From IMG/VR virus record IMGVR_UViG_3300021400_000612, positions 1 through 64,000 of that record: DNA of 64,000 bases, one strand, 5' to 3'. The notes below the pieces were generated by a model, which ran no database searches, was not told the DNA's origin, and was given only the letters and a program-made list of their open reading frames with translations. The DNA comes from a virus. Its lineage: Duplodnaviria; Caudoviricetes. Shown piece after piece: positions 4,378 to 64,000 of the stretch (the stretch's first letter is position 1; the number at the start of each line of letters is the position of its first letter). The translations under genes and the position numbers were made by a program.

Positions 4378-5799
4378 TCAATCTGCAATGATAAAATCAA
4401 ATTTATTTCCAGTATCAGCATTAAATTCACTTTTATTAACTATTGTGTGCGTTTCTGTCATTGGTTTGTTAAATAACCTTTGTTGCTCTATAGTGTTTCT
4501 GCAAAAGATAGAAAATAATTTTATTTTACCACCACGAATATGAATATTACTTAATCTATAAAGATAAGATTCTATATCTTCACATAACGGAGATGTAATT
4601 ATGATAACATCAACGTCTACACATAGAGATTTATCTGGAGCATTAGATAAACTTAAACAATTAATCATTCCTAGATTAAACTTATCTTCATTAAGAGTCA
4701 TTTGTGCTTTAGCACCCATAGATTTACGTTTGCCTTTCTCAGCACCACTCTTAAAGTAAACAGGTCTACCGTGAATATCAACTGCATCAATATTATCTAC
4801 TTTATTGTGATAGTTTCCACAAATATCAGTTTCAGAATTATTATTTAGAAATGCTGTAACTTTATTTGCAAATTCACCACGCTTATTTATAATAAGTATT
4901 TTCTCTCCAGAATGTTCTTTAACCAGTTCTAAAACTTTTTCAAGCTTACCTTCATAATCAGCTAAAAGATTAGTTCTATTGCGTATAATCTCATAAGTTT
5001 GTGTAGCTCTATCTCTAAGATTATTAGGATTATAAAGTTCATCTATTTGTCTATTATATTCAAAAGACATATCAAGATGTTCATTCCATCCGTTTTCTTG
5101 AGCAATTTGAGCACAAATAGTAGCAGAAGAAATATTTAGTACTGTGTTACCAATACGAGCTTGTTGCATAATATCAAAAGAACCAAAGATATTAAGACTA
5201 GTTTCAATATATTTACAATAATATTGATAAAGCTTATAATCTTCACTATCCTCAGGCATTACTACATCAATCAATGTTTCTTCTACGGGGGAGCTTACAC
5301 GCAATGCATCTATTTCAGCTTGCTTAAAACAGTCAAGAAGAGGTGCAATTTTATACAATTGAGTACTATCTGCATTTTTGGAAAAGAGTTTGTTAAGAAC
5401 TACTAGAAAATATCTGCATCTAGCCATATACAAGGCAATACCTAAATCATAACTATCAGGTCTATACCAAATACATAGAGTAGCTGCACTATTCCAACCA
5501 CCATTTTTGAGAAACTGAAGTGTAAAGATACGAATTAATTTAGTATCAACAAGTTTCTTAAATTCAGCATTATTTTCTTCGCTATCAGTGGTTGTTAGAA
5601 ATTCTATAAGTTCTTTTCTTTGTCCAAATTCATTAACTATAATAACAGTTGTAGCAGTAGGACTTCTTGCATACAGTCTTGTTAAAATATCATATACTAA
5701 CACTTTATCATTAAGAGGGGCTGGAACAAATGCAGTTCCAACCCCTTTGTTATCTCTCCAATTAAGTGCAGCATTTTCAAATATTTCGTCAGCCGTCAT
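4378..5799 (-). CDS. SF2 helicase-like protein, apparently degenerate
   Basis: Two-domain helicase-like layout (KILIINKRGEFA, VDVIIITSP...QQR), but no GxGKT or DExH visible. Confidence 0.5.
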   Translation of the reverse strand: MTADEIFENAALNWRDNKGVGTAFVPAPLNDKVLVYDILTRLYARSPTATTVIIVNEFGQRKELIEFLTTTDSEENNAEFKKLVDTKLIRIFTLQFLKNGGWNSAATLCIWYRPDSYDLGIALYMARCRYFLVVLNKLFSKNADSTQLYKIAPLLDCFKQAEIDALRVSSPVEETLIDVVMPEDSEDYKLYQYYCKYIETSLNIFGSFDIMQQARIGNTVLNISSATICAQIAQENGWNEHLDMSFEYNRQIDELYNPNNLRDRATQTYEIIRNRTNLLADYEGKLEKVLELVKEHSGEKILIINKRGEFANKVTAFLNNNSETDICGNYHNKVDNIDAVDIHGRPVYFKSGAEKGKRKSMGAKAQMTLNEDKFNLGMINCLSLSNAPDKSLCVDVDVIIITSPLCEDIESYLYRLSNIHIRGGKIKLFSIFCRNTIEQQRLFNKPMTETHTIVNKSEFNADTGNKFDFIIAD

Positions 5800-5802
5800 A
5801 AT

Positions 5803-8118
5803 TTAATTAAAATCATCTTCATCAAATAGAGTAAGATAGTCTTTAGAATATTTTTTAAGAAGAAGTTTACCAGACTTAACACCTTTGTTAGCATCAGCTT
5901 TCATTGTAGATGAAATACCAAGCTTAATTGGGTCTATAATCTTATATGCTTCTCTGTAATAATATCCATAGTCTATATTTCTCTCTTCAATAGGTTTATC
6001 ATCTAAAGAATTAAGAATTTGAACTGGAAGACCAGATGCAAGTTTTTGCCGTTTATGGTCATTAACATTCTCTTTTTGTATCACAACCCCTTTAGAAGAA
6101 ACATAGAATCTAACGTGTCGCTGACTATGAACAGTAACAACTTTATTATTTTCTATAGTATCATAAACTACTTCAAATTGTTTACCAACATTTTGAGTTT
6201 TACAAAAATCAAGAATATCAGTACTTTTCTGAAGTGTTTCCATTACAGGGATATTATGATAAAGATATTCGAAAACAGCTTTTGCTACAATAGGCATATC
6301 ATAACCTTTTTTCAAATCTTTAAGATATTGTTTAGGGTCTAATGCACCTTTTGCATCTACTTTTTCGTCAGGCCATACAGCAAAGTAATTATTTACATCT
6401 CTAGCAAAATATGCTTTATAATCTTCACTATCAGCACCCATTCTATTAGTTTCATTCCATCTTTTGGTTATATCATTAAATACTTCCAATTTATCTTTAG
6501 GAAGTTTAATAACAATACCATCAGTGTTTGCACTTATAACATGGATACCATTAAGTTCTAATTCTTCAACAAGAGTCATTGTCATTAATTGACCATTAAT
6601 AGTAACTTGAAGTTGAGCAAATCTATCATAAAGAAAGAATAGTTCACTACCAAATTTACCATAAATAGAATTAATTACAATCTTAAGAGCTTCTGCTGCA
6701 ATCTTATTTGGGACTCCAGCAATTATATAACCTTCAGAGTCTGGCGTATGCTTACATTTAACACGAGTATCACGAAAGTATCGCACCATATCCACAAAAA
6801 CTTTATTGTTCAAGTGTTTAGGAGCAATATTATAAGAAACAATTATAGAAGGATAATAACTATTATAATCAAAATGCTTATAAATATATTTGTCATTAGA
6901 CTCAAGTACAACAGGTACATCTTGAGTATGGATTCCTCCACACGCAAGAGTATAAGTTGTACCATAAAAAGTTATTTCTCTACAAAAGTCTTCTTTATTA
7001 GTATGATATACATACACTTTCATCATATCTTCAAGTAAATCTTGAAGTTGTTTAGTCTTAAATTTAATATGAGGGAAAATAATCTTATTGAAACTAAGAC
7101 GAGTTCTTTCAGTACGTCCTTTCTCAAATTGACTTTGATGAAGTCCACTCATTTTAGAATAAAAGGCTATAGTAAGCTTATCAGCGATATTAGCACGAGC
7201 ACTACATAGAACATTAACTTTGAAAGCCTGGGTTATTGAATATCTCAATTTAATTTCATCAGGCTTTTGTCTAGCCATTTCACAAACAAGAAATACGTCA
7301 TTTTTGTTATAATAAAGCATTGGTTCTACATACTTAGGAAGAACATATCGTTCAAAATCATTAGTAATAAGTTCATTTAGATGTTCTAAACTCATACCAC
7401 GATATCTATCAATATTCTTCCAATAAGCATCATATTCTTCTTTGTCTATAGGCGGGAGAGTAAAGTCGAGTAGTTCATGCCATTTAAGATTAATAGAAGT
7501 CTGTTTAAGACTCTTACCAAACTTATTACGGTTACCTTCTTTATCAACTACAACGCTTGCAGAATGAAGACCGTAAACACGCTGAAGGTCAACAGTAGCA
7601 TAAGGAAGTTTATAATACTTCAATAAGTCTATATCTTTATCACCATAAAATGCATCTCTATCACCTTGAAGTTTAATTATTTTCTGACTAAGATTAAATA
7701 GATATTTAATCAAATTCTTAGTACTATCATAGCGATTATAATGCATCATAAAACCTTTTATCATAAGGTCATCATATCCTTGATTATTAAAACCAAATAA
7801 ATCAGTTCTAACAGGAATCTGAGTAACATTACCGTTTTCATCTTCTTTCGTATCGTAATGAGATTGCATATTGTTAATATAAGCAACTAATTCAACTAAT
7901 TGAGAATCATCGGTATCACTAATCCAAAAGATTTTACTTTTAACTTTATCAAGACGAGACTTAATCTCAGCTACAGAAAGTTTTTCTGGTAACGCTATAG
8001 GTTTACCTTTAGCATCAACACAATCTGAAAATGTTTTCATATAATCTTGTAAATCTACAAAAGTAACACTAAAGAGATTTATGAAGATTTCTACGTCAAA
8101 TGCGAGAGATTTAATCAT
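5803..8118 (-). CDS. polB: DNA polymerase family B
   Basis: Exo I FDVE; motif A FDYNSYYPSII; motif B KIVINSIYGKFG; motif C SANTDG. Confidence 0.95.
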   Translation of the reverse strand: MIKSLAFDVEIFINLFSVTFVDLQDYMKTFSDCVDAKGKPIALPEKLSVAEIKSRLDKVKSKIFWISDTDDSQLVELVAYINNMQSHYDTKEDENGNVTQIPVRTDLFGFNNQGYDDLMIKGFMMHYNRYDSTKNLIKYLFNLSQKIIKLQGDRDAFYGDKDIDLLKYYKLPYATVDLQRVYGLHSASVVVDKEGNRNKFGKSLKQTSINLKWHELLDFTLPPIDKEEYDAYWKNIDRYRGMSLEHLNELITNDFERYVLPKYVEPMLYYNKNDVFLVCEMARQKPDEIKLRYSITQAFKVNVLCSARANIADKLTIAFYSKMSGLHQSQFEKGRTERTRLSFNKIIFPHIKFKTKQLQDLLEDMMKVYVYHTNKEDFCREITFYGTTYTLACGGIHTQDVPVVLESNDKYIYKHFDYNSYYPSIIVSYNIAPKHLNNKVFVDMVRYFRDTRVKCKHTPDSEGYIIAGVPNKIAAEALKIVINSIYGKFGSELFFLYDRFAQLQVTINGQLMTMTLVEELELNGIHVISANTDGIVIKLPKDKLEVFNDITKRWNETNRMGADSEDYKAYFARDVNNYFAVWPDEKVDAKGALDPKQYLKDLKKGYDMPIVAKAVFEYLYHNIPVMETLQKSTDILDFCKTQNVGKQFEVVYDTIENNKVVTVHSQRHVRFYVSSKGVVIQKENVNDHKRQKLASGLPVQILNSLDDKPIEERNIDYGYYYREAYKIIDPIKLGISSTMKADANKGVKSGKLLLKKYSKDYLTLFDEDDFN

Positions 8119-10802: not shown

Positions 10803-10867
10803 TTTACAACAAATTTTAAAATTAATATTAAGTTTATAAGCTCCCCTGTAGAGGAAATTGTGAATTG

Positions 10868-10938
10868 TTACCCTAACTGGACTCGAACCAGTACTAACAG
10901 AACCAAAACCTGTTGTGCTACCATTACACCATAGGGCA
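10868..10938 (-). tRNA. tRNA-Gln(TTG)
   Basis: Acceptor TGCCCTA/TAGGGTA; anticodon arm ACAGG-TTTTGGT-TCTGT; T-loop GGTTCGAGTCC; no encoded CCA. Confidence 0.92.
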
Positions 10939-13248: not shown

Positions 13249-13578
13249 TTACTTTCCTTTCTTACCTTTATATTCTATATTAAGTTCTTTACAAATTTGT
13301 TGAGAGATTTCAGGACCAAGATAATTCCTATATTCTTTTCCAGTTTTAGCACTTACTTTTATTACAAAGCAAGAACCATTACTAGAAATATATACAGGGT
13401 ATTCTTTACCTTTTCTGTCTTTCCAAGTAAACTTTGTCTTAACAGGTTCAGTTTTAACTCGCTCCCCCGTAGAAGAAATGAATGTGTTGCCACTACGAGT
13501 ATAAGTCTGAGCATTAGTTACACAAGCAGCTGCCAATATAAATAGCAGCATTACCAATAATCGTCTTATTTTAATCAT
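13249..13578 (-). CDS. secreted/periplasmic hypothetical protein
   Basis: Signal-peptide-like MIKIRRLLVMLLFILAAACVTNAQ. Confidence 0.6.
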   Translation of the reverse strand: MIKIRRLLVMLLFILAAACVTNAQTYTRSGNTFISSTGERVKTEPVKTKFTWKDRKGKEYPVYISSNGSCFVIKVSAKTGKEYRNYLGPEISQQICKELNIEYKGKKGK

Positions 13579-13705
13579 AAACTTTATCGTAATTAATAGG
13601 TTTGTATAATTTATCACTAAGAACTTGTAGTTCAATTCTTTCATACTCTGTAAGAGCATCTTTAGATTTTAGAGCGTTAATACGTTCAGCTTGTTCTTTA
13701 CTCAT
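13571..13705 (-). CDS. small hypothetical protein (44 aa)
   Basis: MSKEQAERINALKSKD...; coupled start/stop overlaps on both sides. Confidence 0.45.
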   Translation of the reverse strand: MSKEQAERINALKSKDALTEYERIELQVLSDKLYKPINYDKVYD

Positions 13706-13854: not shown

Positions 13855-14007
13855 AGCTGTAAATTTTAAGTTGTTTTTATTAAAGATTTTGTTTTATTAA
13901 ACTTAGAAGATGTATATCGCAACAACAAAGATAAAGTAGATAATCTAAATCATCCTTGCTGCTGCGACTGTTACATATAATTCTTTCTACAGGCGTGCTG
14001 ATACTAA

Positions 14008-14145: not shown

Positions 14146-14247
14146 AGTTGTAAAGTGTTTAATTGTTATAAAGTTGAATGTGATGATAATAACACACCCG
14201 CAGATTAGCAATGCTATGTTCTTCTCTACGGGCGTGCTAGTATAATA

Positions 14248-15346: not shown

Positions 15347-15432
15347 TAGTCATTTCGGGAGTGCCTGAGAAAAAGAATTTTATTTTTAACGTACTTTATA
15401 TATAAAAATTTTCTAATATGCTGAAATTTTTT

Positions 15433-15440
15433 TATTTTTG
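15433..15440 (+). promoter_or_regulatory. Bacteroidota -7 element (TATTTTTG)
   Basis: TAnnTTTG 25 nt before ATG 15466. Confidence 0.5.
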
Positions 15441-15465
15441 TACTATATTTCCTAAAGATACTGTT

Positions 15466-18015: not shown

Positions 18016-18295
18016 TTTTTTAAGATTATTTAATAAAATATGTACTTCTATTACTATTTCATCTATTACTTATACTTATAATCCTGATGATATATTACTT
18101 AGATTATACTATTAATAGTACTTATGTTACTCGTGCTTGTAAGCACCCCCGTAGAAGAATTGATGATTAGCTTCAAGCCACTACTCTCTTTATTACTATC
18201 ATTAATACTCTCACTAACTTTACTAATACTATGTTAAGGAATGTTAATTAAAATATGTTAATATTAAAAAATTTCATTATATGGAATATTATGTT

Positions 18296-19043: not shown

Positions 19044-19119
19044 TCATCACTTTCTCTACGGGGGTGCTTGTTGAGGTGCTGTCCTTATAAGAACCTCCGT
19101 AGATACTAATAGAAATAAA

Positions 19120-21824: not shown

Positions 21825-22099
21825 AAGACGAAAGTGTTACTTATTTTGAAAGAAGTTTATTTATAGTTTTTGTTGCTATACTTTTCTTTATAGTAGGATT
21901 TGTTGTAGGACATTTTGTTGTGCCTAATAAATGCACACCTGTAGATAATAAAACTATAGATTCTCTTACACAAGTTAATGATAGTATAAAAATAAAAATT
22001 GAAAAATTAGATAGTATTAAAAATGCAAAAGTTATTGAGGTTAGTACTCTTGATAATGATAGTACTCTTAAGTTGTTCTACGAGCTGGTGTCAGAATGA
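21821..22099 (+). CDS. Rz-like inner-membrane spanin
   Basis: N-terminal TM helix plus coiled coil; follows the lysin. Confidence 0.5.
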   Translation: MKDESVTYFERSLFIVFVAILFFIVGFVVGHFVVPNKCTPVDNKTIDSLTQVNDSIKIKIEKLDSIKNAKVIEVSTLDNDSTLKLFYELVSE

Positions 22100-22394
22100 T
22101 AATGTTACAATTTCTTCTACAGGGGAGCTTACTGCTACTCCTGACTCTGTACTTATTGCTTTTGATGACCTTCGTAAAGCTAACGCAAAGATGGTCGAAC
22201 TTAAGTATCAGAAAGAGATTAATGATTCACTTCGTTCAATTATTAAGAATGATGACATCATTATGCGAGAATACAGCCGTAACGTTGATGCTCTTAAGAA
22301 ACAAGTTAAACAAGTTAAAAGACAACGTAATCTCGCTATTGGGGGAGGAGTACTTGCCACGTTATCCATGGCTTTACTCGCAATATTCAAATAA
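22023..22394 (+). CDS. spanin-like membrane protein
   Basis: Signal/lipobox-like VLLSC, coiled coil and C-terminal TM; overlaps the Rz-like gene. Confidence 0.5.
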   Translation: MQKLLRLVLLIMIVLLSCSTSWCQNDNVTISSTGELTATPDSVLIAFDDLRKANAKMVELKYQKEINDSLRSIIKNDDIIMREYSRNVDALKKQVKQVKRQRNLAIGGGVLATLSMALLAIFK

Positions 22395-29415: not shown

Positions 29416-29578
29416 TTTTTAGATAGTATTTGCACCCCTTTAGAAAAGATTATTGATTACTGCTGAAGCTATTAAAGTTTATGCTTAAACTATTGGCATC
29501 ATTAATTTCGTGCGTACCTTATTTAATTATGATGTCAATAGCGGTGGTACATATATTTATTAAAAAGTTTTAAAATAT

Positions 29579-35449: not shown

Positions 35450-35482
35450 TCCATCACCTCTTCTACGGGGGGAGGTGATGGA
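35450..35482 (+). terminator. hairpin after capsid operon with dispersed motif in loop
   Basis: TCCATCACCTC-ttctacggggg-GAGGTGATGGA; no strong U-tract. Confidence 0.55.
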
Positions 35483-35500
35483 CTTAATACTTAAATTATT

Positions 35501-40511: not shown

Positions 40512-40831
40512 TGGAGATACTAAGTAATACAATACAAACTACTCTTGAAAGTTTTGACTTTGCGTTTTGCATCATAGTTAATGTTCTAACTTATCTTATA
40601 ATTAGACTTATCAATGATAGAAATGGACACAAAGATTTAACAACTTGGAGTAAAAGACTTGTGTTGTTGTTGGTAATTCTTTCTATGGGGGTGCTATACT
40701 ATCTATTAGGTAATGATACTAAAGCTATCTTAAACAGTGCTATTCTTGCTCCTGTTTTTTGGTCTTGGATTATGAAACCTATATGTAAGTATTTCAAAGT
40801 TGATTATAAGAATGTTAATCTTTTTGATTAG
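40511..40831 (+). CDS. putative holin
   Basis: 106 aa, three TM segments, charged C-terminus. Confidence 0.6.
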   Translation: MEILSNTIQTTLESFDFAFCIIVNVLTYLIIRLINDRNGHKDLTTWSKRLVLLLVILSMGVLYYLLGNDTKAILNSAILAPVFWSWIMKPICKYFKVDYKNVNLFD

Positions 40832-40865
40832 CACGCCCGTAGAAGAAATGTATAATTAGATTATT

Positions 40866-42976: not shown

Positions 42977-43087
42977 ATGGCTAATAAAAAGATTAAAGAT
43001 AGAGGTGTCGCTGCACCTAGTATTCCTAAAGCAGGAATTACTAAAAGACGTAGAAGACTTGAAGATGGAGGCAAAGCTACGGAATAG
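42977..43087 (+). CDS. 36-aa basic micro-protein
   Basis: MANKKIKDRGVAAPSIPKAGITKRRRRLEDGGKATE, 19 nt after the promoter. Confidence 0.55.
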   Translation: MANKKIKDRGVAAPSIPKAGITKRRRRLEDGGKATE

Positions 43088-43475
43088 TTTATATAAGATA
43101 GAATTACATTGGATAAAGATAATACCAATGGTTCTATGTGCGTTAAGTTTTACAGATACTATATTATCTTACTTTGAAGTTGAAGGTAGTATTATATCTT
43201 ATCTTAACGCTCTTCTTGTTTGGTTGTTCTTATACTTATCATCCTTTGTATTCCAATTTTGTAGATGGCATAGAATGTTCTTATACTACTTATTAGTAGA
43301 AGGTTGCATTAATTGTTATGATTATGAAATTGGAATACCTTTAGGTTTAAAAGATATGATAGTAGTTCAGCTAGCTCTTATTATGATATTTGTTAGTATT
43401 GGTTTATATTTTCATCAACATGATAAGCACCCCTGTAGAAAAGATTGTGGCAAAACTGATGAGGCAATATGCTGA
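43065..43475 (+). CDS. multi-TM membrane protein
   Basis: Start moved to MEAKLRN (upstream in-frame part spans the promoter); about four hydrophobic segments. Confidence 0.6.
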   Translation: MEAKLRNSLYKIELHWIKIIPMVLCALSFTDTILSYFEVEGSIISYLNALLVWLFLYLSSFVFQFCRWHRMFLYYLLVEGCINCYDYEIGIPLGLKDMIVVQLALIMIFVSIGLYFHQHDKHPCRKDCGKTDEAIC

Positions 43476-45979: not shown

Positions 45980-46003
45980 CTTATAAAATAAAGTAACTAA
46001 CTA

Positions 46004-46058
46004 GGCAGTGATGCTAATTCTTCTCTACGGGGGAGCTTTCAGCTCACTGCCCTTTTTA
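46004..46058 (+). terminator. intrinsic terminator enclosing dispersed motif
   Basis: GGCAGTGA...TCACTGCC followed by CTTTTT. Confidence 0.7.
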
Positions 46059-46072
46059 ATAATATTACTATT

Positions 46073-46489: not shown

Positions 46490-46872
46490 TTAAACAATTA
46501 ATCGATATTGACGGTTATTGGAAAGTTATAGTTTATTATAATGTAGACTATAACTTTTTTGGTGATATAGCTTTTGAACTGAAAGCTATTGGCTCCCCCG
46601 TAGAGAAAATTGATAATATTTACTACAACCTGAAGTATGAAGCTAAAGCTGTAACTTGTAGTAATATTAAAGAACATATTAGTGTAGTTCTTTTTAATTA
46701 TCATAAAAGTAGATACGATTATATTAATTCTATTATTCATGAAGCTGAACACGTTAAACAGCATATGCTGAAGGCTTATAATGTTGCTGATGAAGGAGAA
46801 CCTCCAGCATATACTGTTGGTTACATAGCTATGAGAATGTTAATGATAAATCCAAAGTTGAAACTATTGTAG
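46486..46872 (+). CDS. HExxH putative metallopeptidase (cassette gene 6)
   Basis: IIHEAEH...GEPPAY. Confidence 0.55.
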   Translation: MIKQLIDIDGYWKVIVYYNVDYNFFGDIAFELKAIGSPVEKIDNIYYNLKYEAKAVTCSNIKEHISVVLFNYHKSRYDYINSIIHEAEHVKQHMLKAYNVADEGEPPAYTVGYIAMRMLMINPKLKLL

Positions 46873-47103: not shown

Positions 47104-47223
47104 CCTCCGTATAGAGAAGTAGATAAAGTTTAGAACCACTCAGATTAATTCCGAGTTGTTAATGCTACAACTCTTCTACGGGGGAACTTTCTTTTAGATA
47201 AAACTTATAATAAACAAAATAAT

Positions 47224-48876: not shown

Positions 48877-49564
48877 TTTTAATATTAGTGAAAGCGATTG
48901 GATTCCTAGAGTAGCTGCGTGGACTATAGATGCTCTTTCTCAAATGAAAGTTCTACCTATGGAACGTAAACGTAGAAAGCTTGAGGTTTCTAATAGAATT
49001 GCGCAATTCCCCTGCACTATTAATGCAGAGGAACTTCGTGTTTTTGATAGTAATGGTGTTGAGATACCTGCTTTTGATAGAGAAAAAGATTGCAAGTGTC
49101 CTAAGTCCACAATTCCTTCTACGGGGGAGCAAATTGCTATCACAAATCCTAAAGCTCCAAATGGTTGGGAAACAACACAAGTTGCTGATATTGTAAATCC
49201 TAATGGTAGAAACTTTGTTCTTGATTGTAATAATATAGATTTAAGTTTTGATACTGATAGTATTACAGTAGAAACATTTGAGGTTGCAACATATCATGAT
49301 GATTACTATGATTGTGAATGTCCTTACATTTATGATGATGGTCTTTTACTTGAAGCTCTTGCTTGGTATTGTATGTTTAAATATCTTAGTAGAGGTAGTA
49401 AGCATCCAGTATATGATTTGAAATCTCCTAGTCCTGCAATTAATCCATTTATTCAATGGAATACTCTTAGACCTAGAGCAGCAGCTTCTGTTAAAGGAAA
49501 ACTTGCTAATACTGAAGGTTGGAATAACTTCTTTTATAATAGTACTTTTTTACCTAGAGGTTAA
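48821..49564 (+). CDS. tail tubular/ring protein (P22 gp4-like)
   Basis: 247 aa immediately before the muzzle gene. Confidence 0.65.
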   Translation: MKLNNQLTLQRLIGKIDNDFNISESDWIPRVAAWTIDALSQMKVLPMERKRRKLEVSNRIAQFPCTINAEELRVFDSNGVEIPAFDREKDCKCPKSTIPSTGEQIAITNPKAPNGWETTQVADIVNPNGRNFVLDCNNIDLSFDTDSITVETFEVATYHDDYYDCECPYIYDDGLLLEALAWYCMFKYLSRGSKHPVYDLKSPSPAINPFIQWNTLRPRAAASVKGKLANTEGWNNFFYNSTFLPRG

Positions 49565-53899: not shown

Positions 53900-56113
53900 A
53901 TGGCTATAAGAAAATTAAAAAATGGTGGTAGGCGTAAAGCTATATTTGGTAGTGAAGAGGGCGCTATTCTAGCTGCTGCAGGTATTAATGTAGCTGGTAC
54001 TATGGCTGCTTCTGCTATCGGGGCTAGTGCTACTAAAAAGGCAGCACAAGACCAAGCTAAAGCTACTATCGAGTCTGCTCAAAAACAAGCTCAAGCTATT
54101 AAAGACCAAAGTGCTAGGTCTAAAGAATTGCAACAAGAATCTCAAGAATTTATTAAAGAGCAAAATGCTGAGAATCGTGAACTTCAAAAAGATATTCAGC
54201 TACAACTTCAAATGCTTACAGGTCAACAAAATGTTAATGATAGACTTGAAGCTAGTAAGATACAAGTTAAAAATGGTGGTAGTACTAAACGTAAACTACG
54301 TCTTGCAGGCAAATCTCCATCTCTTCTACAGGGGAGCGAGAATATGCCTTTTGTCGTTACTGATGGTGGTACTGTAATTCCAATAGGACAAACTCCTGAA
54401 GGTTACGATATGTATGAAATTCTTGGTAACGACCACGAACATTATCATAAAGCTAGAGGAGGTAAGAATAAAACTGGTGTAGGTATTAAGTTTGCTGATG
54501 GTAGTATAATAGAAGGAGAAGGTAATCAAAATACTAATCAAGGTGAGATTATGGTAAATACTCCTAATAATGCTTATTTTATAAGCAAACATTCTATTGC
54601 TGGATTTAATCCTGCTAAAATGACTCTTGGTGGTATGCATCCGTTACAAGCTTATGCTATTCAAGAACAACTTAAAGCTGCTAATGGTATTAGTGACGAC
54701 GGTAAGCATAATAGCTCCCCCGTAGAAAAGAAACTACTTGGTGGCGAACCTAATTATGTTATTGATATGTATAATCAAGTTGGTCCACAAATGGGTGTAG
54801 ATACTATGGGTGATACTACTGTTGGAGTTGTAGCTGCTACTCAAGATGATAAAAGTAAACTTAAATTTGGTGGTAAAAAAAGATGTCTTAGACTTGGTGG
54901 TAGAACTAAAGCTGTTGCAGGGCTTGATGTAATAAATAAATGGTGGGCTGGATTAGATAATCAAACTAGAAATAATATTAATATGGCTGCAGCAGGTGTT
55001 GGAAATCCTACTGTAACTGGAAAAACATCTAGTTCTAATACAGGAAATGCATCTAGTTCTAATACAGGAAGTACATCAAAACCTGTTACTCCTAGTATGT
55101 TTGAGCATCAACCTAGTGGTACTAGTGGAAATACTAGAGGTGGTATGACTACTACAAGAGGCGGTGGTTTTGGTGGCTGGATAAATCGTAATGCTGACTT
55201 AGTTGGTGCAGGTATTGGAGCATTAGGAAATATTGGTGGTGCTTTAATTACATCTGGTGCTAATAGGTCTGCTGCTAGAACTATAGCTGATGCTCAGAAT
55301 CAGGCTGCTGGTATTATGAGAGATGCTTATAATTCTCTTACTGGAATTGATATGAATTCTATTCGTAGAGAAGATTTTGCTGCTGCTCATGCAATGCCTG
55401 CTCTTCAAGCTCCTGTAAGTTTTGCTGCTGGACAAAACGCTTTAGTTAATAGGTCTTTGCAAAGAACTCTTGCTAATGCTGGTAAATATTCTGCTAGTGG
55501 TGCTGCTGCTCAACGAAGAATGGCTGAGGCTGAAGTAAATGCTCAAGATGCACGTAATCAAATTTATTCTGCTGACCAACGTCAAATGCAAGAAATTCGT
55601 CAAGGTAATGCTGAACGTGTTACGCAGGCTGCTATGAAGAATGCTGAACTTGATACTCAAGCTAATCGTGATTATACAGGTGCATATCTTAATTTGCTTC
55701 AGTATAACAACGATATTAATAATCAAAAGATTCTTGGTGCAGCAGGTGCTATGTCTGAAGGTGCTATCAATGCAGCAAATGCTATTGGTCAAGCACAAAC
55801 TTCAAATGCTGCTGCTTGGGCTAGTGCTCTTACAGGTTCTTCTCAAGGATTTGCAAATAGTCTTTCTAATATGATTACTCGTAAAAATGACCTTGCTAAA
55901 GTTATGCTTGGTGCTAGTGGAGATAGTCAAGCTTCATATTATGCTAATCCTAACTTAGCATCTAACCGAGAAGCTAATACAGAATATAATAGATTGGTTG
56001 CACAATACGATGCTATAAAGAATAGTAAGAAACCTGGTGACCAAGATACTGCTGCTATTCTAAGGAGAAGAATTAATAATATTGCAACTGGTAGAGGATT
56101 TCAAACTGTTTAA
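53900..56113 (+). CDS. cargo/ejection protein 1
   Basis: Ala/Gly-rich hydrophobic helices, coiled coils, repeated K-x-GG motifs; follows muzzle. Confidence 0.65.
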   Translation: MAIRKLKNGGRRKAIFGSEEGAILAAAGINVAGTMAASAIGASATKKAAQDQAKATIESAQKQAQAIKDQSARSKELQQESQEFIKEQNAENRELQKDIQLQLQMLTGQQNVNDRLEASKIQVKNGGSTKRKLRLAGKSPSLLQGSENMPFVVTDGGTVIPIGQTPEGYDMYEILGNDHEHYHKARGGKNKTGVGIKFADGSIIEGEGNQNTNQGEIMVNTPNNAYFISKHSIAGFNPAKMTLGGMHPLQAYAIQEQLKAANGISDDGKHNSSPVEKKLLGGEPNYVIDMYNQVGPQMGVDTMGDTTVGVVAATQDDKSKLKFGGKKRCLRLGGRTKAVAGLDVINKWWAGLDNQTRNNINMAAAGVGNPTVTGKTSSSNTGNASSSNTGSTSKPVTPSMFEHQPSGTSGNTRGGMTTTRGGGFGGWINRNADLVGAGIGALGNIGGALITSGANRSAARTIADAQNQAAGIMRDAYNSLTGIDMNSIRREDFAAAHAMPALQAPVSFAAGQNALVNRSLQRTLANAGKYSASGAAAQRRMAEAEVNAQDARNQIYSADQRQMQEIRQGNAERVTQAAMKNAELDTQANRDYTGAYLNLLQYNNDINNQKILGAAGAMSEGAINAANAIGQAQTSNAAAWASALTGSSQGFANSLSNMITRKNDLAKVMLGASGDSQASYYANPNLASNREANTEYNRLVAQYDAIKNSKKPGDQDTAAILRRRINNIATGRGFQTV

Positions 56114-59208: not shown

Positions 59209-62200
59209 ATGGATGTATTAGATTTTATAAATAGAAATGGACAAAGGACTGTACCTAATCCAAATTATAATCCTAAGTCTAAAAAGAATACAGAGCCTCC
59301 TACTATAATTGTTCCTGATGCTCAGCCTATTCCTGATGATGTTATAGAAATGGCGAAAAGAGATGCTCTTAATCAATTTTCTATAGATTCTGGAACAGCT
59401 GACAAATATAGAGAATTTGGATTAAATTATAATCCTAAAGATAATCTTGATAAACAATTAGCAGATGCTCAATCTAATTGGTCTAAGGCAGTTAATGCTT
59501 TAGGCCAAACTTTGGTTTCTGAAATTGGTATTGGAACAGCAAAGGGTGTTAGTGATTTGATTGACTTTGTTGGTCAAAAAGTTGGATTATCTGATCCTAA
59601 TTATTCTAATCCTGTTAGTCAATATCTTGAAGAAAAGCAAAAAGAGTTTGAAGAATGGGCTCCTGTCTACGCTGACCCTGATAATAATACTTTAAAAGAC
59701 CAATTTACTGGAGGTTTCAATCTTGGATATTGGTTTTCTAATATTCCTTCTATTGCAAGTAGTTTAACTCTTCTTATTCCTAGTACTGGTATTACTAAAG
59801 CTTTATCTTGGGCTGGTAAAGCTAGTAAGATTTCTAAATATACTAATAGAGCTGCAAGAGCTATAGCTAATCCTGTAGCACATGCTTTTGGAAGAAGTGG
59901 TTTTACTAGTGCTGAAATGGGAGTAGCTTTTGAAACTGGTATCAATGCTGCTCTTAGTAGAACAATGGAAAATTATCAAGAAGCTAGACAAACTTATAAC
60001 GATAGTTATATAGATATGTCTAACACTTTGAATAATATGTCTGATGAAGAATATAATAAATTTCTTCAGAGAAATGCTCAATATCTTGCAGATAATAATA
60101 TAGATACTACAGATAGAGATTCTGTTGCAAAACAACTTGCTAGAAGTGCTGCTGATAGAACTTTCCAATTAGACTTTGCTAATGTTGTATTTGATGCATA
60201 TCAAATTTATGGTCTTAGAAATCTTTTAACTCACGCTCCTAGATTTAACCAATCTGCTGCAACTAGAGCTGCTCAGCGTAATGCTATGAGAACTGCAGGT
60301 ATGACAGAAGAACAAGCTGCTGCTGAATTAGCTAAAGATAGTAGATTAACTAAAATTGGTTATTGGGTTAATGATAATTTATTTGGTTTTGGCAGACAAA
60401 TTAAATCTGAACTTTCTGAAGGTGTTGAAGAAGCTGTTAACTATATTGCACAACAAGAAGGTACTCATCTCGGTAAATATCTTCTAACTGGGGAAAATGG
60501 TGACTCTAGAGATTTGAATTTGCTTAGTAGTGTTGGTCCAATGACTAGTAGAATTCTTAATGATTATTATAATGATACTGGTCTTTGGGATTCTGCCTTC
60601 TGGGGTGTTGTTGGTGGTGTTGTATTTCAAGCTGGAGGTAGCAAATTAAATAGAATATCTCAAACTATTAAGAATAGACAAGAAGAAAAGAAATCAGCTA
60701 ATAAAGATAATGCTAAAACTCAAGAAGCTAAAGTTACTCCTCACTGGTGGGCTCTTGACCAATCTGCTGAAACAGAAAGAATGCTTACTGAAATTAATGG
60801 TCGTAATGTTAAACTTAATACATTACGAGAAAATATGCAAAAAATTAATGCAGGTAAGAATCCTTACATTGTAAACGAAGATAAGACTAATCCTGACATA
60901 AGCTCCCCCGTAGAAGAAAGAATGCTTAGAGAGAAAGCATATACAGAGTATCTTGATGAAATGATTATTACTGCTAGAAATAACGGTACTCTTAATATGC
61001 TTGAAGCTTATCTTGAAGATTCAAATGTACAAGATGCTATTGTTGCTGCTTATCAAAGTGGTGATAATGCTAATCGTGTATCAAAGGAAGAAGCTCAACA
61101 AGCTGCTGCTAAAGCATCTGAAAGAGTTAAGAAAATTGATAGAATGTATCAGGATGAAATTATTCATGCTTCTGATATTGCTGATAGAGTTGGTGATAAA
61201 GAAGGAACTGCACTTCCTGCTGAATACATTCAAATGATTGCATCATCTAATGTTCGTCATAGATTAAATCTTGAACGTTATGATGAAGTAGCTGCTATGT
61301 ACAATGAAGATACAGAAAGAATTAAAAAAGTTCTTGGAGATAAATTCGATTCTACTATAGATTATCAAGGTCTTGTATCTCTTCGTGCTACTATTCAAGA
61401 ATTATCTGGTCTTATTGCACAAAAGAAAGAACTTGAAACTAAACAAAAAGAAAAGCCTACTCTTACAACACAATTTGACATTGAAGAAATTGATAATCAA
61501 ATTAATGTTATTAAAAGAAAGGCTCTACAAACTTCTACTGATGCTCAATTTGCAAGAACTTTATATGCTTTGCAAGTAGCTAATTCTGCTGTTAGAGAAT
61601 ATGCTCCTGATGGTAAAACATTCAAAGTTAATGCTAGTGATGCAGATTTGATTGCAAATCTAGATAATTTCTTAATGAATGATTTATCTCATATTTTTGA
61701 TGAAGTAGGTCAAGAAAAAAGAGATAACATTAGTAATGATGCTGTTCTTGGAGAACTTAGAAAAGTAATGAATGATATGCGTTACGTTCTTCCAGTAGAT
61801 GCTAATGGTAAAAGACAAGATACAGAATCTTATCTTGAAAATCTTGACCCTAAACTTCCAGAAAATTATGATATTCTTGCTAGAATCGAATTAGAGAAAA
61901 TTAAAGAAAATGCTAGACTTGCTGAAACTGAGCAAGAAATAAGACATTATATTGGTGCTATTAACAATATGGAAAATGTAGCTCGTAAAAGAGTTATAGA
62001 AGACGCATTTAATACATTATCTGATATTCAGAAAAATCATACAGATTTAAATATAATGCAAATTGCTAATGGTATATATGATGAAAACAATGCTGATTGG
62101 CTCATACAAACTAATGGTTTGACTGATGAAGAAAGAAATAAATTAAGAGAAGCTCTTAAAGTTCTTAATTTGGCTGATGTAAAAAATAGAACTCTATTTG

Positions 62201-64000
62201 ATTCATTGGCTAAAACTCTTATGTATACTAGAGCTACTCAGACTCAAGTTGATGCAAACAATAAACAAAACACTGAACCTGCACAAGCTGCTACTGCTCA
62301 ACCAGACACTAGTGCTGCTGGTACTCAAACTCAAAATTCTGGCACATCTCAAAATCCAGTTTCAGCCCAACCAACGGGGCAGCCTATCAATCAATCGCAA
62401 CAAGGTTCTAATGCAGCCACAAGTCAAGGAAATGGGCAAATAGAGCAAACAAGTGGACAAACCACACCTACACAAATAGCATTATCATATAATGGTAATA
62501 CTATTAATTATAGTGTTCCACAAGCTGGTGCTACTAGTAGTACAAACGTTATTATTGTCAAACCTCTTGGTAATGGCAATTTTGAATTAGATTTCGTTAA
62601 TAAAGGCTCAGACGTTAGACCTGAAGATATTAGTAACAATAGACTGTTTGATGTTCAACAACAACCTATGGATGGTGCTGTTGTTAAGCGTAATCCTATT
62701 GTTAGGTTTGGAAATAACAATGAAGTTCAAGTTGTAAGTCAAGGTCTAGTAGAGAATCCATCAATTTCTTCTACGGGGGAGCAAGGCAGCTCTGTAGCTA
62801 ATGCTCAAAGTTATATTGATAGAATGGAATCTGCCAACACTCATAAGGAAGTTGATGCAATATATACAGAAGCTCTTAACAATGGAATACAGGAAAAAGA
62901 AATATTTCCTACTTATAGTAGAAGACATAAAGAAATAGATGACGCTAAAAAAGTTGTTGAACCTGAAGCTCCAGTTAGAGGAGCAGACCCTCTTGTTTAT
63001 ATTCCTCAGATAGCAGATGCTGCTAGAGCTGCTGCTATGAAATTGAAGAATGGTGAAACTGTTACTTATGAAGAATATTTAGGCGGTCTTACTGATGTAA
63101 AAGCGGCTATAAATGATGATATAACTTTTGAAAAGATTGCAAAAGAACGTTGGCAAACTGCTATGCAGCGTCTTGCGAAAAAATATCCTGAGGTTGTTGA
63201 TAATATCATTAATACTCTTCAAAGTAGCACTACAGAAGAAGTTCCTGAAAGTAATCTTAAACGTGTATTCGATAAGAACTTTACTAGTGCTGTAGAGAAA
63301 CTTGTTAAAGCATATCTTAAAGATATAGGTCAGAAGAAAGTTAATGGTAAGTATGTTATAAGTCTTGAAAATCTTCTTCGCTATTGTAATGGTGAATTCC
63401 AAAATAACGAGAATGCTGAAATACTTTATAATGTTCTTGCTAGTTATTTGAAATCTGATGAGGCTAGTAGTCTTTATGATGTTATTGAAACTGAAGAAGA
63501 AATTGCTGCACCTGACTTTTTAGATAATGTCAAAACGCCTTTAGAAGAAAGAATAAATAAAGCAATTAGACAAGAAAATCATAGAATAAATACTATCGGC
63601 GTTCAAAATAAAGAAGTATTTGACGAACTTGAAGAAGGACAAGAACTTTCACTTAGAGAAACTAATGATAGAATTTATTTTACTTTTGATGGTAAAGATG
63701 TAGGTTATATAGGTAAGCCAAAAGTTGTAAATGGAACTTATAGTTCTCCTTATGAATATTGGCTATTTAGAATTAGACCTAATGGTAAAGATACATACTA
63801 TTCTAAACTTGCTGAAATATTTAAAGCTATTGTAAATGCTACAGATGGTGAACTTAAAGAAATTTATGATGCTGCTTTAGCTGGTAGTTGGCATCTTGAA
63901 GGTAATGCTACTTGGGATGCTATAAAAGCAGAATACACTATCAATACAATAGATAATGAAACAGGTGAAGAAAAGGATGATGTAGACTTTAGACTTCTTA
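59209..64000 (+). CDS. giant cargo/ejection protein (partial, >1590 aa)
   Basis: ATG at 59209 (MDVLDFINRNGQRTVPNPNY...); spot-checked in frame to the end; absent from the ORF track, consistent with no stop inside the window. Confidence 0.75.
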   Translation, partial: MDVLDFINRNGQRTVPNPNYNPKSKKNTEPPTIIVPDAQPIPDDVIEMAKRDALNQFSIDSGTADKYREFGLNYNPKDNLDKQLADAQSNWSKAVNALGQTLVSEIGIGTAKGVSDLIDFVGQKVGLSDPNYSNPVSQYLEEKQKEFEEWAPVYADPDNNTLKDQFTGGFNLGYWFSNIPSIASSLTLLIPSTGITKALSWAGKASKISKYTNRAARAIANPVAHAFGRSGFTSAEMGVAFETGINAALSRTMENYQEARQTYNDSYIDMSNTLNNMSDEEYNKFLQRNAQYLADNNIDTTDRDSVAKQLARSAADRTFQLDFANVVFDAYQIYGLRNLLTHAPRFNQSAATRAAQRNAMRTAGMTEEQAAAELAKDSRLTKIGYWVNDNLFGFGRQIKSELSEGVEEAVNYIAQQEGTHLGKYLLTGENGDSRDLNLLSSVGPMTSRILNDYYNDTGLWDSAFWGVVGGVVFQAGGSKLNRISQTIKNRQEEKKSANKDNAKTQEAKVTPHWWALDQSAETERMLTEINGRNVKLNTLRENMQKINAGKNPYIVNEDKTNPDISSPVEERMLREKAYTEYLDEMIITARNNGTLNMLEAYLEDSNVQDAIVAAYQSGDNANRVSKEEAQQAAAKASERVKKIDRMYQDEIIHASDIADRVGDKEGTALPAEYIQMIASSNVRHRLNLERYDEVAAMYNEDTERIKKVLGDKFDSTIDYQGLVSLRATIQELSGLIAQKKELETKQKEKPTLTTQFDIEEIDNQINVIKRKALQTSTDAQFARTLYALQVANSAVREYAPDGKTFKVNASDADLIANLDNFLMNDLSHIFDEVGQEKRDNISNDAVLGELRKVMNDMRYVLPVDANGKRQDTESYLENLDPKLPENYDILARIELEKIKENARLAETEQEIRHYIGAINNMENVARKRVIEDAFNTLSDIQKNHTDLNIMQIANGIYDENNADWLIQTNGLTDEERNKLREALKVLNLADVKNRTLFDSLAKTLMYTRATQTQVDANNKQNTEPAQAATAQPDTSAAGTQTQNSGTSQNPVSAQPTGQPINQSQQGSNAATSQGNGQIEQTSGQTTPTQIALSYNGNTINYSVPQAGATSSTNVIIVKPLGNGNFELDFVNKGSDVRPEDISNNRLFDVQQQPMDGAVVKRNPIVRFGNNNEVQVVSQGLVENPSISSTGEQGSSVANAQSYIDRMESANTHKEVDAIYTEALNNGIQEKEIFPTYSRRHKEIDDAKKVVEPEAPVRGADPLVYIPQIADAARAAAMKLKNGETVTYEEYLGGLTDVKAAINDDITFEKIAKERWQTAMQRLAKKYPEVVDNIINTLQSSTTEEVPESNLKRVFDKNFTSAVEKLVKAYLKDIGQKKVNGKYVISLENLLRYCNGEFQNNENAEILYNVLASYLKSDEASSLYDVIETEEEIAAPDFLDNVKTPLEERINKAIRQENHRINTIGVQNKEVFDELEEGQELSLRETNDRIYFTFDGKDVGYIGKPKVVNGTYSSPYEYWLFRIRPNGKDTYYSKLAEIFKAIVNATDGELKEIYDAALAGSWHLEGNATWDAIKAEYTINTIDNETGEEKDDVDFRLL

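Follow-up and report, generated by a model that had tools for sequence, protein, structure and literature searches.

Chi, the signal read by RecBCD and AddAB, is a G-rich, asymmetric word that is read on one strand, lies at kilobase intervals in genes and spacers regardless of context and marks "own" DNA. The phage word described here resembles it in these respects, and a likeness may be drawn to the marking of own DNA as well. However, Chi is 5-8 nt long, owned by the cell, enriched in the host and served by a helicase-nuclease, whereas the phage word is 20-22 bp long, is phage-owned, stands at control level in 25 Bacteroidales genomes and has no known cognate helicase-nuclease. The Neisseria DUS and Pasteurellaceae USS share with it a conserved core with lineage dialects, use of both orientations, permissive frames in genes and inverted pairs that act as intergenic terminator hairpins. 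Unlike the phage word, they function in the transformation of competent bacteria, occur at a frequency 10-30 times higher and lack periodic spacing on each strand; a phage has no such uptake step.

Other parallels come from phages and plasmids. The stoperators of Cluster A mycobacteriophages, bound by L5 gp71-type repressors, and the C1 operators of P1 are likewise dispersed, asymmetric and in part genic (13-17-bp sites, 15-35 copies per phage genome), and their specificity differs among related phages. Stoperators, however, point the way their genes are transcribed and are a feature of temperate phages whose repressor is known, while the word ignores the direction of transcription, has a period on each strand and has no known repressor. 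The ssiA and ssiB sites of RSF1010, used by the RepB' primase, and the G4-type ssi are strand-specific, lie on opposite strands and are in some cases long and private to their replicon. Moreover, DnaG primases start on the trinucleotides CTA and TTA, from the middle base (PMC2978363), and the word has CTA or TTA at its centre beside a pyrimidine template tract. The ssi signals, by contrast, are hairpins found once or twice per replicon, at the origin, and a genome-wide array of ~25 copies is not known to have been described. Lastly, the nick motifs of T5-like, phiKMV-like and tf-like phages are short, asymmetric, phage-specific words at several places in the genome, with a function that is unsettled. 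They differ from the word in being few and on one strand, whereas the word occupies both strands and close opposite-strand pairs are common.

The phage that carries the word is crAss-like and comes from the ruminant gut; its genome has a GC content near 0.30 and the word is GC-rich. In the window (the whole 64,000-nt stretch that was analysed), TCTACRGGSGWGC has 18 exact matches, 11 plus and 7 minus, against an expectation of 0.00 from 100 dinucleotide-preserving shuffles of the window. Nine of the 18 are the commonest form given by an earlier sequence-only reading, confirming its count of nine exact copies. Beyond these lie seven weaker copies; allowing one or two mismatches added 40682+, 47175+, 21933-, 29432- and 19091-, and a weight-matrix scan added 35462+. 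That reading's 21 copies (13 plus, 8 reverse) were reproduced once one or two mismatches were allowed, its weak copies at 29432 and near 6085 were both found again, and 12 copies of the window fall within ORFs and use the frames it had listed, matching its 12 within coding sequence. The 13-bp motif that it proposed is real and enriched, but the true site is longer: the 13-mer is the centre of an asymmetric, GC-rich and highly informative word of ~20-22 bp, laid out from 5' to 3' as a weakly conserved CA, a pyrimidine tract, the core and T-T/A-A/G. The array extends past the window, as the whole 89,718-bp record holds 27 copies, 15 plus and 12 minus. Separately, the short terminal repeats (55-119 bp) of the IMG/VR records look like assembly overlaps. 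The window copies are as follows.

5282..5294, plus: exact, in the SNF2-type ATPase gene (4378-5799, minus; identity from synteny and p-crAssphage annotation), antisense to the gene, encodes SSPVE
6084..6098, minus: weak, sense, in the family-B DNA polymerase gene (5803-8118, minus); core departs by two A for C/G changes
10840..10852, minus: intergenic, 14 nt past the tRNA-Gln 3' end and 37 nt ahead of the start codon at 10802
13461..13473, minus: exact, sense, in ORF 13249-13659 (minus), encodes STGE
13986..13998, plus: intergenic, variant ending GGCGTGC
14225..14237, plus: intergenic, variant ending GGCGTGC; ORF 14273 begins 35 nt on
18143..18155, minus: intergenic, where the two gene arms diverge; directed into the minus arm
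19055..19067, plus: intergenic TCTACRGGSGWGC match; forms, 23 nt from the next copy, the left arm of an inverted pair
19091..19103, minus: degenerate (2 mismatches), right arm of that pair, which forms a hairpin (-27.4 kcal/mol, z = -5.2)
21933..21945, minus: one-mismatch copy from the mismatch scan
22116..22128, plus: sense, in ORF 22023-22394, which immediately precedes the terminase gene, encodes STGEL
29432..29444, minus: one mismatch, outside all ORFs of the gene set and taken as intergenic
29941..29953, plus: TCTACRGGSGWGC match in an ORF
35462..35474, plus: weight-matrix variant, caps a strong intergenic hairpin (-23.8 kcal/mol, z = -7.1)
40682..40694, plus: one mismatch, in the small hydrophobic-protein gene 40511-40831, encodes SMGVL
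40831..40843, minus: where gene 40511-40831 stops, antisense relative to the arm
43427..43439, minus: antisense, at the overlap of ORFs 42927-43475 and 43390-43710
46024..46036, plus: exact, in the loop of a terminator-like hairpin (-25.7 kcal/mol, z = -5.5) followed by a T run; the start at 46073 is 36 nt on
46592..46604, minus: exact, antisense, in ORF 46486-46872, encodes SPVE
47175..47187, plus: one mismatch, intergenic; the start at 47224 is 36 nt on
49118..49130, plus: exact, sense, in gene 48821-49564, encodes STGEQ
54325..54337, plus: sense, third frame, in gene 53900-56113, encodes LLQGS
54714..54726, minus: exact, antisense, second copy in gene 53900-56113, SSPVE, lineage-specific
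60902..60914, minus: exact, antisense, in the 2318-aa virion-protein gene (59209-66165), lineage-specific
62770..62782, plus: exact, sense, second copy in the 2318-aa virion-protein gene (59209-66165), encodes STGEQ

The word is not a peculiarity of one genome. All 15 Intestiviridae genomes scanned over their full sequence, among them crAss002 and the human-gut prototype p-crAssphage, contain YYTYYAYGGGG at 11-29 copies per genome, compared to at most 1.1 in shuffles. Judged from these scans, the 13-mer is this lineage's dialect of a signal common to all 15. The core is shared, while the 5' and 3' flanks are particular to each lineage: nine genomes have GAGC or GTGC as the 3' half, G007 and G008 have GTTGTA, and G018 and G025 have CGGC, and this half varies even among phages with capsid proteins 75-80% identical to those of this phage. 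The invariant centre is 5'-CTA, TTA or CCA after the pyrimidine tract. In p-crAssphage half of the copies carry CCA, and the two variable positions of the word are Y and R. By contrast, the core was not enriched in 25 genomes of the Bacteroidales, the candidate host order, where it stood at the level of the reversed-pattern control; its density in the phage is ~25-fold higher. Against these 25 genomes the word appears private to the phages, and a host Chi, host uptake or KOPS-type signal is excluded because of this lack of enrichment.

The proposal that selection targets the DNA rather than the protein is borne out by codon shuffling, by the frames and strands used and by ortholog alignments. 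Genome-wide, 18 copies lie within coding sequence, versus a mean of 0.1 and a maximum of 1 in 200 synonymous-codon shuffles, the comparison that the sequence-only reading had named as able to refute it. These copies use at least five reading frames and two strands and sit in variable protein loops. The other refuting observation named there, free change of in-CDS copies among relatives, came out partly in favour of the word: alignment of relatives showed the core retained in place at five in-CDS sites (14/14, 13/14, 12/14, 10/13 and 8/11 relatives), although the surrounding proteins share only 28-67% identity. The aligned place of 5282+ holds the core in all 14 relatives, including crAss002 and p-crAssphage; 29941+ is retained in 12 of 14, with the local dialect present in crAss002 and p-crAssphage, and 22116+ in 8 of 11. 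Conservation is not uniform, however: 54325+ is retained in 4 of 10 relatives, the lineage-specific 60902- in 0 of 14, and the word is missing at the aligned place of 46592- in the sole ortholog found. No indel was found at 60902- against four orthologs. At 49118+, four orthologs show unrelated codons in the same columns, gap-free, which indicates origin by substitution rather than insertion. The in-gene copies arose through substitution, and the word is kept in protein loops and spacers by selection on the DNA itself.

The orientation of the word is independent of the direction of transcription, with 147 sense and 102 antisense copies in coding sequence and 59 of each between genes. This argues against mRNA promoters of a virion polymerase, a role raised in the sequence-only reading. 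The copies are spaced more evenly than expected: the coefficient of variation (CV) of spacing is 0.46-0.68 in 15 of 15 genomes versus 0.95 for random placement, and the per-strand CV is 0.39-0.64 versus 0.72-0.81 when strand labels are permuted. Neighbours less than 5 kb apart alternate in strand (223 vs 50), while those 5-7 kb apart share a strand (38 vs 17). On each strand the copies form a separate, evenly spaced series that repeats every ~6 kb, and the two series interleave, so that orientations alternate along the genome. The evidence for this alternation comes from the family as a whole, in which the genomes have orthologous sites in common and are not independent; in this genome alone it is weak (runs z = 0.2 to about 1). 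Opposite-strand neighbours lie less than 200 nt apart in 41 pairs, some with spacers of 16-35 nt; the spacers within close inverted pairs have GC contents of 0.30 and 0.33, the genome being near 0.30, and are not AT-rich. Overall, a protein motif and an ordinary promoter are ruled out, and the word behaves as a dispersed site-specific signal with the Chi- or uptake-like logic first suggested for it, but other models named with these fit poorly: parS-type sites are palindromic while the word is asymmetric, and equal use of both strands does not suit a one-directional packaging or ejection signal.

These properties point to a phage-encoded factor that co-evolves with the word and would read it strand-specifically, each copy serving perhaps a few kilobases of one strand. 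As to what is done there, we favour, tentatively and as a conjecture, the possibility that DNA synthesis on a given strand starts at the copies which that strand carries. A primer would be synthesised at the word by the DnaG-type primase of the phage or, with lower probability, by its giant two-barrel RNA polymerase; the GC-rich half and the dialect flank would form the recognition element, and a purine-rich primer would be copied from the central YTA and the pyrimidine tract. Priming sites would have to occur on both strands, be indifferent to gene context and follow a kilobase-scale ruler on each strand, as the word does. One phage protein is 48% identical over 243 aa to a p-crAssphage homolog annotated as a primase of the DnaG family, and the central CTA and TTA match the DnaG start trinucleotides. 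The plasmid RSF1010 illustrates how a primase private to one replicon may depend on long, specific sites on opposite strands. All of these points are leads only. Several points count against priming. DnaG and T7-type primases need only 3-5 nt, while the word has 20, and CCA, found in half of the p-crAssphage copies, is not among the known DnaG trinucleotides. A period of ~6 kb is long for Okazaki fragments, and one or two fixed origins would need sites on only one strand per replichore, yet both strands are filled everywhere. Also adverse are the base composition of the close-pair spacers, the weak alternation in this genome and the N-terminal part of the primase, in which no divergence tracking the dialects was found (R_B = 0.99).

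The length and information content of the asymmetric word would also suit operator or roadblock sites for a monomeric, sequence-specific phage DNA-binding protein, similar to stoperators or P1 C1 operators; a protein bound at ~25 places would silence the genome, compact it or mark it, perhaps while crAss-like phages persist in a long-term carrier state. We consider this unlikely. Tens of genic and intergenic copies per genome, head-to-head pairs and absence from hosts agree with it, and the split of dialects among phages with such similar capsids is expected of a protein and site pressed to diverge. However, stoperators follow transcription and the word does not, the sites are not concentrated at promoters, and no conserved candidate binding protein was found among the phage proteins. 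Furthermore, duplex binding predicts neither the ~6-kb period on each strand nor same-strand exclusion to 4-5 kb, of which avoidance of direct repeats explains the short range only.

The word may also be a phage-private Chi-like mark at which a processive helicase-nuclease or recombination enzyme that tracks one strand changes behaviour, a reading that we regard as less likely still. G-richness, equal strand use, even per-strand spacing, indifference to gene context and the density relative to Bacteroidales are all in keeping with it, dialects would suit competition between phages, and genes for an SF1 (RecD/Pif1-like) helicase and a PD-(D/E)XK exonuclease are present in the phage. Yet these two genes are separate and look like the usual partners in replication and in RecT-type recombination, a Mu Gam-like protein for end protection is encoded as well, known Chi sites are short and host-owned with a host version excluded by the Bacteroidales scan, and the word was not linked to homology breakpoints in the one usable genome pair.

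Read as its reverse complement, the word has the compact anatomy of a phage-polymerase promoter, a lineage-specific upstream part (the dialect flank) preceding a conserved initiation part (CCCCGT, then a purine-rich initial transcript), and the two-barrel RNA polymerase might use it; this is improbable. The giant polymerase-containing protein is among those diverging faster between dialect groups (ratio 0.82-0.83), and four intergenic copies lie 35-37 nt ahead of start codons. These four face forward, however, so that the reverse-complement reading would fire away from the genes, and antisense copies are as common as sense ones, in late genes and on the non-coding strand. Transcription in phi14:2 also speaks against it, as the early transcripts of the virion polymerase lack a common motif upstream, and the middle and late genes are read from promoters of the host sigma type (bioRxiv 10.1101/2020.03.07.982082).

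Even spacing across the whole genome and privacy to the phage could also mean that the copies anchor the genome for condensation or packaging or for the loading of cargo proteins, which we find quite improbable. Although crAss-like virions carry much internal protein, anchoring predicts no strand rule, packaging and ejection are unidirectional while the orientations are equal, and the word is not linked to genome ends. Very doubtful, too, are programmed single-strand nick sites of the kind found in T5-like, phiKMV-like and tf-like phages. The asymmetric, strand-specific word has a pyrimidine-TA-C centre that may recall the published phiKMV nick consensus, and the phage encodes an ATP-dependent ligase, but double nicking at the 41 close opposite-strand pairs would break the genome, the nicked phages known so far carry nicks on one strand, and a search for a conserved nickase candidate found none.

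An RNA or single-strand hairpin, in which the pyrimidine tract pairs with the G run around a UACG-type loop, is highly improbable. The word can self-pair, some intergenic copies lie in strong hairpins (z = -5 to -7), and the Y and R positions in p-crAssphage would preserve G-U or G-C pairing. Lone copies, however, have weak folds (-5 to -7 kcal/mol, z = -0.7 to -2), the proposed pairing is broken without compensation in the GTGC and GGCG variants, a quarter to a third of copies have an A or T at the last loop place that a UNCG loop forbids, and in the 40% of in-gene copies that are antisense the G-U pairs become C-A; an Rfam search found nothing for the word. Finally, a short GC-rich repeat in genes and spacers of an AT-rich genome recalls mitochondrial GC clusters and REP elements, but a small selfish element or gene-conversion tract spreading by insertion is scarcely credible given lineage-specific copies without indels against orthologs, many copies positionally stable since the family diverged, and an even spacing and strand rule that it would not lead one to expect.

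A literature search found no published description of the word. Because relatives have dialects of their own, the 25 genomes of the candidate host order show no enrichment and no description was found, the word looks like a recognition signal, apparently undescribed so far, that serves DNA machinery of the phage itself. If the copies are start sites, priming would be confined to phage DNA, on either strand, at intervals that a replisome can bridge. If they are Chi-like marks, phage DNA would be spared or repaired, while host or rival-phage DNA lacking the dialect would not.

The repeat analyzed here, which we call the word, is an asymmetric, GC-rich DNA element surrounding a 13-mer. Searches with TCTACRGGSGWGC returned 18 matches in the 64-kb window, 11 on the plus and 7 on the minus strand, and none in 100 dinucleotide-preserving shuffles. 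When 1–2 mismatches were allowed the window contained 26 matches versus 1.7 expected, among which the extra and "weaker" copies listed in a sequence-only reading were recovered; a weight-matrix scan of the window supplied an additional copy at 35462 (plus). Strict copies number 27 in the whole 89,718-bp record, of which 15 are on the plus strand and 12 on the minus strand. The conserved block extends beyond 13 bp and is composed of a weakly kept CA, a pyrimidine tract, the core and T-(T/A)-(A/G), for a total of ~20–22 bp. Because the G + C content of the window is only 0.28–0.36, the word forms a GC-rich island. No published description of the word or its relatives was recovered from the paper library by string or keyword search.

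The record belongs to a crAss-like phage. Among named phages it is closest to cr271_1 (Crassvirales; Intestiviridae; Obtuvirinae): a 20-kb query aligns over 15% of its length at 75% DNA identity, and the capsid proteins are 80% identical. The 21 public runs listed, all existing as contigs only, are gut metagenomes from sheep, cattle and other animals, and 20 of them contain the stretch or part of it. As the record is linear and without end repeats, its ends are assembly ends and not genome termini, and the terminal repeats of relatives, at 55, 75, 95, 99 and 119 bp, resemble overlaps left by assembly rather than physical ends. The genes are arranged as follows.

Gene arms of the phage and individual loci in the window
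Minus-strand replication arm: primase homolog (N-terminal part), HNH endonuclease, SSB-position and RecT-position genes, SNF2-type ATPase, family-B DNA polymerase, SF1 helicase, three tRNAs
Long plus-strand arm: exonuclease, terminase, portal, capsid and tail genes, two giant virion proteins
Second minus-strand block: dUTPase, Mu Gam-like protein, thymidylate-synthase-like protein, ligase
3–731, minus: primase homolog, 243 aa of which are left by the cut at the contig start
735–1466, minus: stand-alone gene for an HNH endonuclease (PHROG 374, E = 4e-60), flanked by the SSB-position gene and the primase homolog
15418–16348, plus: tandem small genes, opposite in direction to the surrounding arm
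34498–35436, plus (312 aa), and 34507–35457, minus (316 aa, GTG start): opposite-strand ORFs that overlap almost fully

The primase homolog fragment shares 48% identity with a p-crAssphage protein whose annotation is DnaG-family primase. The HNH gene has an ortholog in none of the 14 relatives compared and so resembles a homing-type element that entered the replication module recently. The first gene of the 15418–16348 pair gives a weak Pfam RepL match (E = 0.0056; 16.6 bits, under the 20.3-bit cut-off) and has an ortholog in p-crAssphage only (36%). For the overlapping ORFs, the greedy gene set chose the minus ORF, which has no orthologs; the plus ORF is probably the real gene, and an open antisense frame of 316 aa is unusual in 32% GC DNA.

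Copies within genes occupy at least five frames on both strands, encoding most commonly STGE (sense) and SPVE (antisense) and more rarely YGGA, LQGS or SMGVL. Shuffling synonymous codons within genes left a mean of 0.1 copies (maximum 1) genome-wide, compared to the 18 observed in CDS. This enrichment over a codon-preserving shuffle, with the many frames used, bears out the proposal of the sequence-only reading that selection acts on the DNA and not on the protein. Across aligned orthologs, the copies favour variable, gap-rich protein segments, and the core is found at the aligned place in most relatives at several sites.

Position-conserved copies (site, gene, relatives with the core at the aligned place)
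5282, SNF2-type ATPase: 14 of 14
68702, giant polymerase-containing protein: 13 of 14
29941, gene upstream of the capsid gene: 12 of 14
65108, 2318-aa virion protein: 10 of 13
22116, ORF upstream of the terminase: 8 of 11

The proteins harboring these sites are just 28–67% identical among relatives, and the alignments indicate that many copies are ancient, with several sites fixed since the family diverged. The lineage-specific copies at 49118 and 60902 align without a gap to unrelated codons in the orthologs, indicating that they originated by substitution and not by insertion. A small mobile repeat (MITE, REP or GC-cluster) was rejected given this replacement of codons without indels and the long-fixed positions.

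Relatives with 75–80% capsid-protein identity to this phage contain 10–19 copies of the exact word in some cases and none in others, and de-novo k-mer enrichment revealed that those lacking it carry variants. The 5′ half of the variants, CTTCTACGGGG or CTTTTACGGGG, is common to these relatives. For the 3′ half, nine genomes have GAGC or GTGC, the relatives G007 and G008 have GTTGTA plus a second form, and the relatives G018 and G025 have CGGC. The cultured phage crAss002 (Churivirinae) has ~28 copies built on CCTTTAYGGGGGAA, and the p-crAssphage genome (Carjivirus, MT006214) 29 copies built on CCTCYACGGGGRGT. Each lineage has its own form, or dialect, of a generalised core, YYTYYAYGGGG, which is present in 11–29 copies in each of 15 Intestiviridae genomes scanned in full compared to at most 1.1 in shuffles. 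Outside this family, crAss001 (Steigviridae; MH675552) contains 27 copies of a 9-mer, CTTCTGGAG, in 100 kb; its top 10-mer is expected at ~0.06 copies from composition. The CTTCTGGAG copies are located on both strands, sense and antisense, with an alternation z of 2.7, and this 9-mer is a possible shorter equivalent of the word in the Steigviridae. The GC-rich repeat of cr127_1 (Crevaviridae; NC_055886) is a different element that does not share the layout: it is ~35 nt long, unevenly spaced and present in 9 copies (for example at record coordinates 11359, 11910, 28696, 28874, 42038 and 42235), six of which form three inverted pairs 180–550 nt apart.

The copies follow a rule of spacing and strand. 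Spacing was more even than chance in 15 of 15 genomes (coefficient of variation (CV) 0.46–0.68 versus ~0.95), which are not independent as they have orthologous sites in common. Orientation alternated 259 times and repeated 109 times (mean runs z = +2.0 over the 15 genomes). Within single strands the CV was mostly 0.3–0.7, with one site per 5–9 kb on most strands and up to ~15 kb on the sparsest, and the two-strand mean CV (0.39–0.64) was below that obtained with permuted strand labels (0.72–0.81) in all 15 genomes (P < 0.05 for 11 of them). Taken by itself, the genome studied here alternates weakly (z of 0.2 when the relaxed core is used and of about 1 for its 27 strict copies), and its per-strand CVs are 0.56 and 0.58 versus 0.91 (P = 0.012 and 0.017).

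Distances between neighbouring copies
Under 1 kb: 78 on alternate strands, 1 on the same strand
Under 5 kb: 223 on alternate strands, 50 on the same strand
5–7 kb: 17 on alternate strands, 38 on the same strand

These distances are what two interleaved series, one per strand and each with a period of ~6 kb, would give. Avoidance of deletion-prone direct repeats was rejected as the sole cause, as the same-strand exclusion extends too far.

Opposite-strand pairs within 400 nt are mostly intergenic; 28 are "tail-to-tail" and 20 have the other arrangement. Two pairs in this genome, 19055/19091 and 80976/81012, have a 23-nt spacer between the 13-mers. The first (19055–19103), in the window, is degenerate. 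The second (80976–81024) is a perfect head-to-head pair that lies 17 kb past the window, between a DUF-type gene (81041–82108) and the dUTPase gene. An AT-rich spacer is not a general property of inverted pairs; in p-crAssphage, a pair with such a spacer precedes both RepL genes (sequence L266, 28269–28375; sequence L267, record coordinates 96604–96734). G-C base skew was 0.007 higher downstream of sites than upstream, a small effect, measured over sites that are not independent, and is probably due to sites located at arm boundaries. In the sole sufficiently similar genome pair, homology ended within 100 nt of a word in 6.8% of cases versus 5.2–5.7% by chance (P ~0.4).

From these comparisons, the word appears to be a cis-acting DNA signal that is phage-private, strand-specific and needed at intervals on each strand, and the putative phage factor that recognises it would co-evolve with it. 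Searches of Pfam, PHROGs and the ESM Atlas yielded no DNA-binding or nickase candidate among the conserved unknown proteins, and identity ratios between dialect groups showed no convincing outlier protein: a split DNA-polymerase piece ranked first, followed by a small membrane protein, the thymidylate-synthase-like protein, a 169-aa protein and the giant polymerase protein. Three kinds of process work on a single strand at a time, are needed on both strands and range over kilobases: DNA priming or initiation, tracking helicase-nucleases (the logic of Chi) and transcription.

Our tentative preference is for a DNA priming or initiation site. Priming is favoured because the invariant centre of the word is CTA, TTA or CCA behind a pyrimidine tract, because of where the GC-rich flank is positioned, and because the phage encodes a primase homolog. 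DnaG primases begin at the template trinucleotides CTA and TTA, from the middle base (PMC2978363). A primer on the word would start at the invariant centre, within CTA/TTA/CCA after the pyrimidine tract, the copying of which would produce a purine-rich primer, while the GC-rich half and the dialect flank would be placed as a recognition element would be. The layout, with both strands used at a kb-scale period, is compatible with priming. In primase or single-strand initiation (ssi) signals, a cognate primase makes a primer at a defined template base. The ssiA and ssiB sites of RSF1010 and their RepB' primase reportedly show that a replicon-private primase can require long specific sites on opposite strands. 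Counting against priming, 3 nt suffices for known DnaG-type enzymes, CCA is an unorthodox start trinucleotide, 6 kb is long for Okazaki fragments, and the spacers in the inverted pairs are not AT-rich.

The word may instead comprise operator or roadblock sites for a DNA-binding protein, an unlikely explanation with which its length and dialects agree but its strand rule does not. The stoperators of Cluster A mycobacteriophages follow the direction of transcription, whereas over the 15 genomes the word is sense in 147 and antisense in 102 in-gene copies and is co-oriented in 59 and opposed in 59 copies between co-directional genes. Moreover, stoperators have an encoded immunity repressor, while no conserved candidate for a repressor was recovered for the Intestiviridae.

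A Chi-like mark owned by the phage would fit the layout as well as priming does. Chi, however, is 5–8 nt long, compared to the 20–22 bp of the word, and has a helicase-nuclease that is altered at the site, whereas this phage encodes its SF1 helicase and PD-(D/E)XK exonuclease as separate genes; with the wrong length and no cognate enzyme, we consider such a mark quite improbable. The sequence-only reading had likened the motif to Chi, KOPS and uptake words, and in a host-owned form this comparison fails. The core YYTYYAYGGGG was about as frequent as its reversed-pattern control in each of 25 Bacteroidales genomes, which were reached via a Bacteroidales 16S primer site and include B. xylanisolvens (67 core matches versus 79 control in 6.1 Mb), P. 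vulgatus, S. copri and ruminant MAGs; it is ~25-fold denser in the phages. Likewise, five Bacteroides or Phocaeicola genomes showed no enrichment of CTTCTGGAG. A host Chi, uptake or KOPS signal was thus rejected for lack of over-representation in these 25 genomes of the candidate host order. The word does match the pattern of uptake sequences, with a conserved core and dialects, both orientations, permissive frames and inverted pairs as terminators, but this is a likeness of pattern only, as uptake by a competence machine is a function inapplicable to a phage.

Programmed single-strand nicks are disfavoured, as close opposite-strand pairs are many and the one-strand rule is broken by 15 plus and 12 minus copies, whereas the nicks of T5, phiKMV and tf are all on one strand.

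Transcription fits the word poorly. Approximately one-third of the copies are intergenic although spacers make up less than one-tenth of the DNA (15 genomes); 41% of in-gene copies are antisense. A phage-polymerase promoter, either T7-type or for a two-barrel virion polymerase, is disfavoured by position and orientation, and so is the virion-RNAP option of the sequence-only reading, as the copies are neither positioned nor oriented like promoters of the genes they would drive. A study of phi14:2 found virion-polymerase transcripts without a common motif (bioRxiv 10.1101/2020.03.07.982082), and the crAss001 paper mentions, of such signals, just host invertible promoters. A structured RNA (a UNCG-capped hairpin) was also rejected: lone copies fold weakly (z = −0.7 to −2), variants of the word disrupt the putative stem without compensatory change, the antisense share is high, and Rfam matched the three tRNAs and nothing else. 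The strong hairpins at 35448–35488, 46000–46060 and 19045–19110 are due to the surroundings or to inverted pairs, and a hairpin applies to some intergenic copies only and not to the word generally. The copy at 10840 (feature 10840–10938, minus) begins 14 nt past the 3′ end of tRNA-Gln and, if co-transcribed, would be part of its trailer.

Returning to priming and the phage-owned Chi, either can be placed in a broader model, speculative and rather doubtful, in which the replication or recombination machinery of the phage would have to meet a private, strand-periodic word at intervals of a few kb on either strand, where the word would serve for priming or as a phage-owned Chi. DNA of the wrong dialect, from the host or a rival phage, would be left unreplicated or destroyed, and the fast change of dialect between related phages would be the trace of phage–phage warfare. 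Such a system would span the Crassvirales if the crAss001 9-mer, a weaker signal, is homologous to the word.

No virus is more abundant in the human gut than p-crAssphage, a member of the Intestiviridae, and to our knowledge little is known of how this family replicates, persists and competes. That ~25 constrained sites, many in essential genes, have been held for the age of the family means that the word must serve an important step. The word is also an experimental handle, being short and carried by phages available in culture (crAss002, probably also crAss001). Its dialect is usable as a compact lineage marker for crAss-like contigs, and the per-strand spacing rule could flag misassemblies. 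Phage-private recognition could account for exclusion between co-infecting crAss-like phages.
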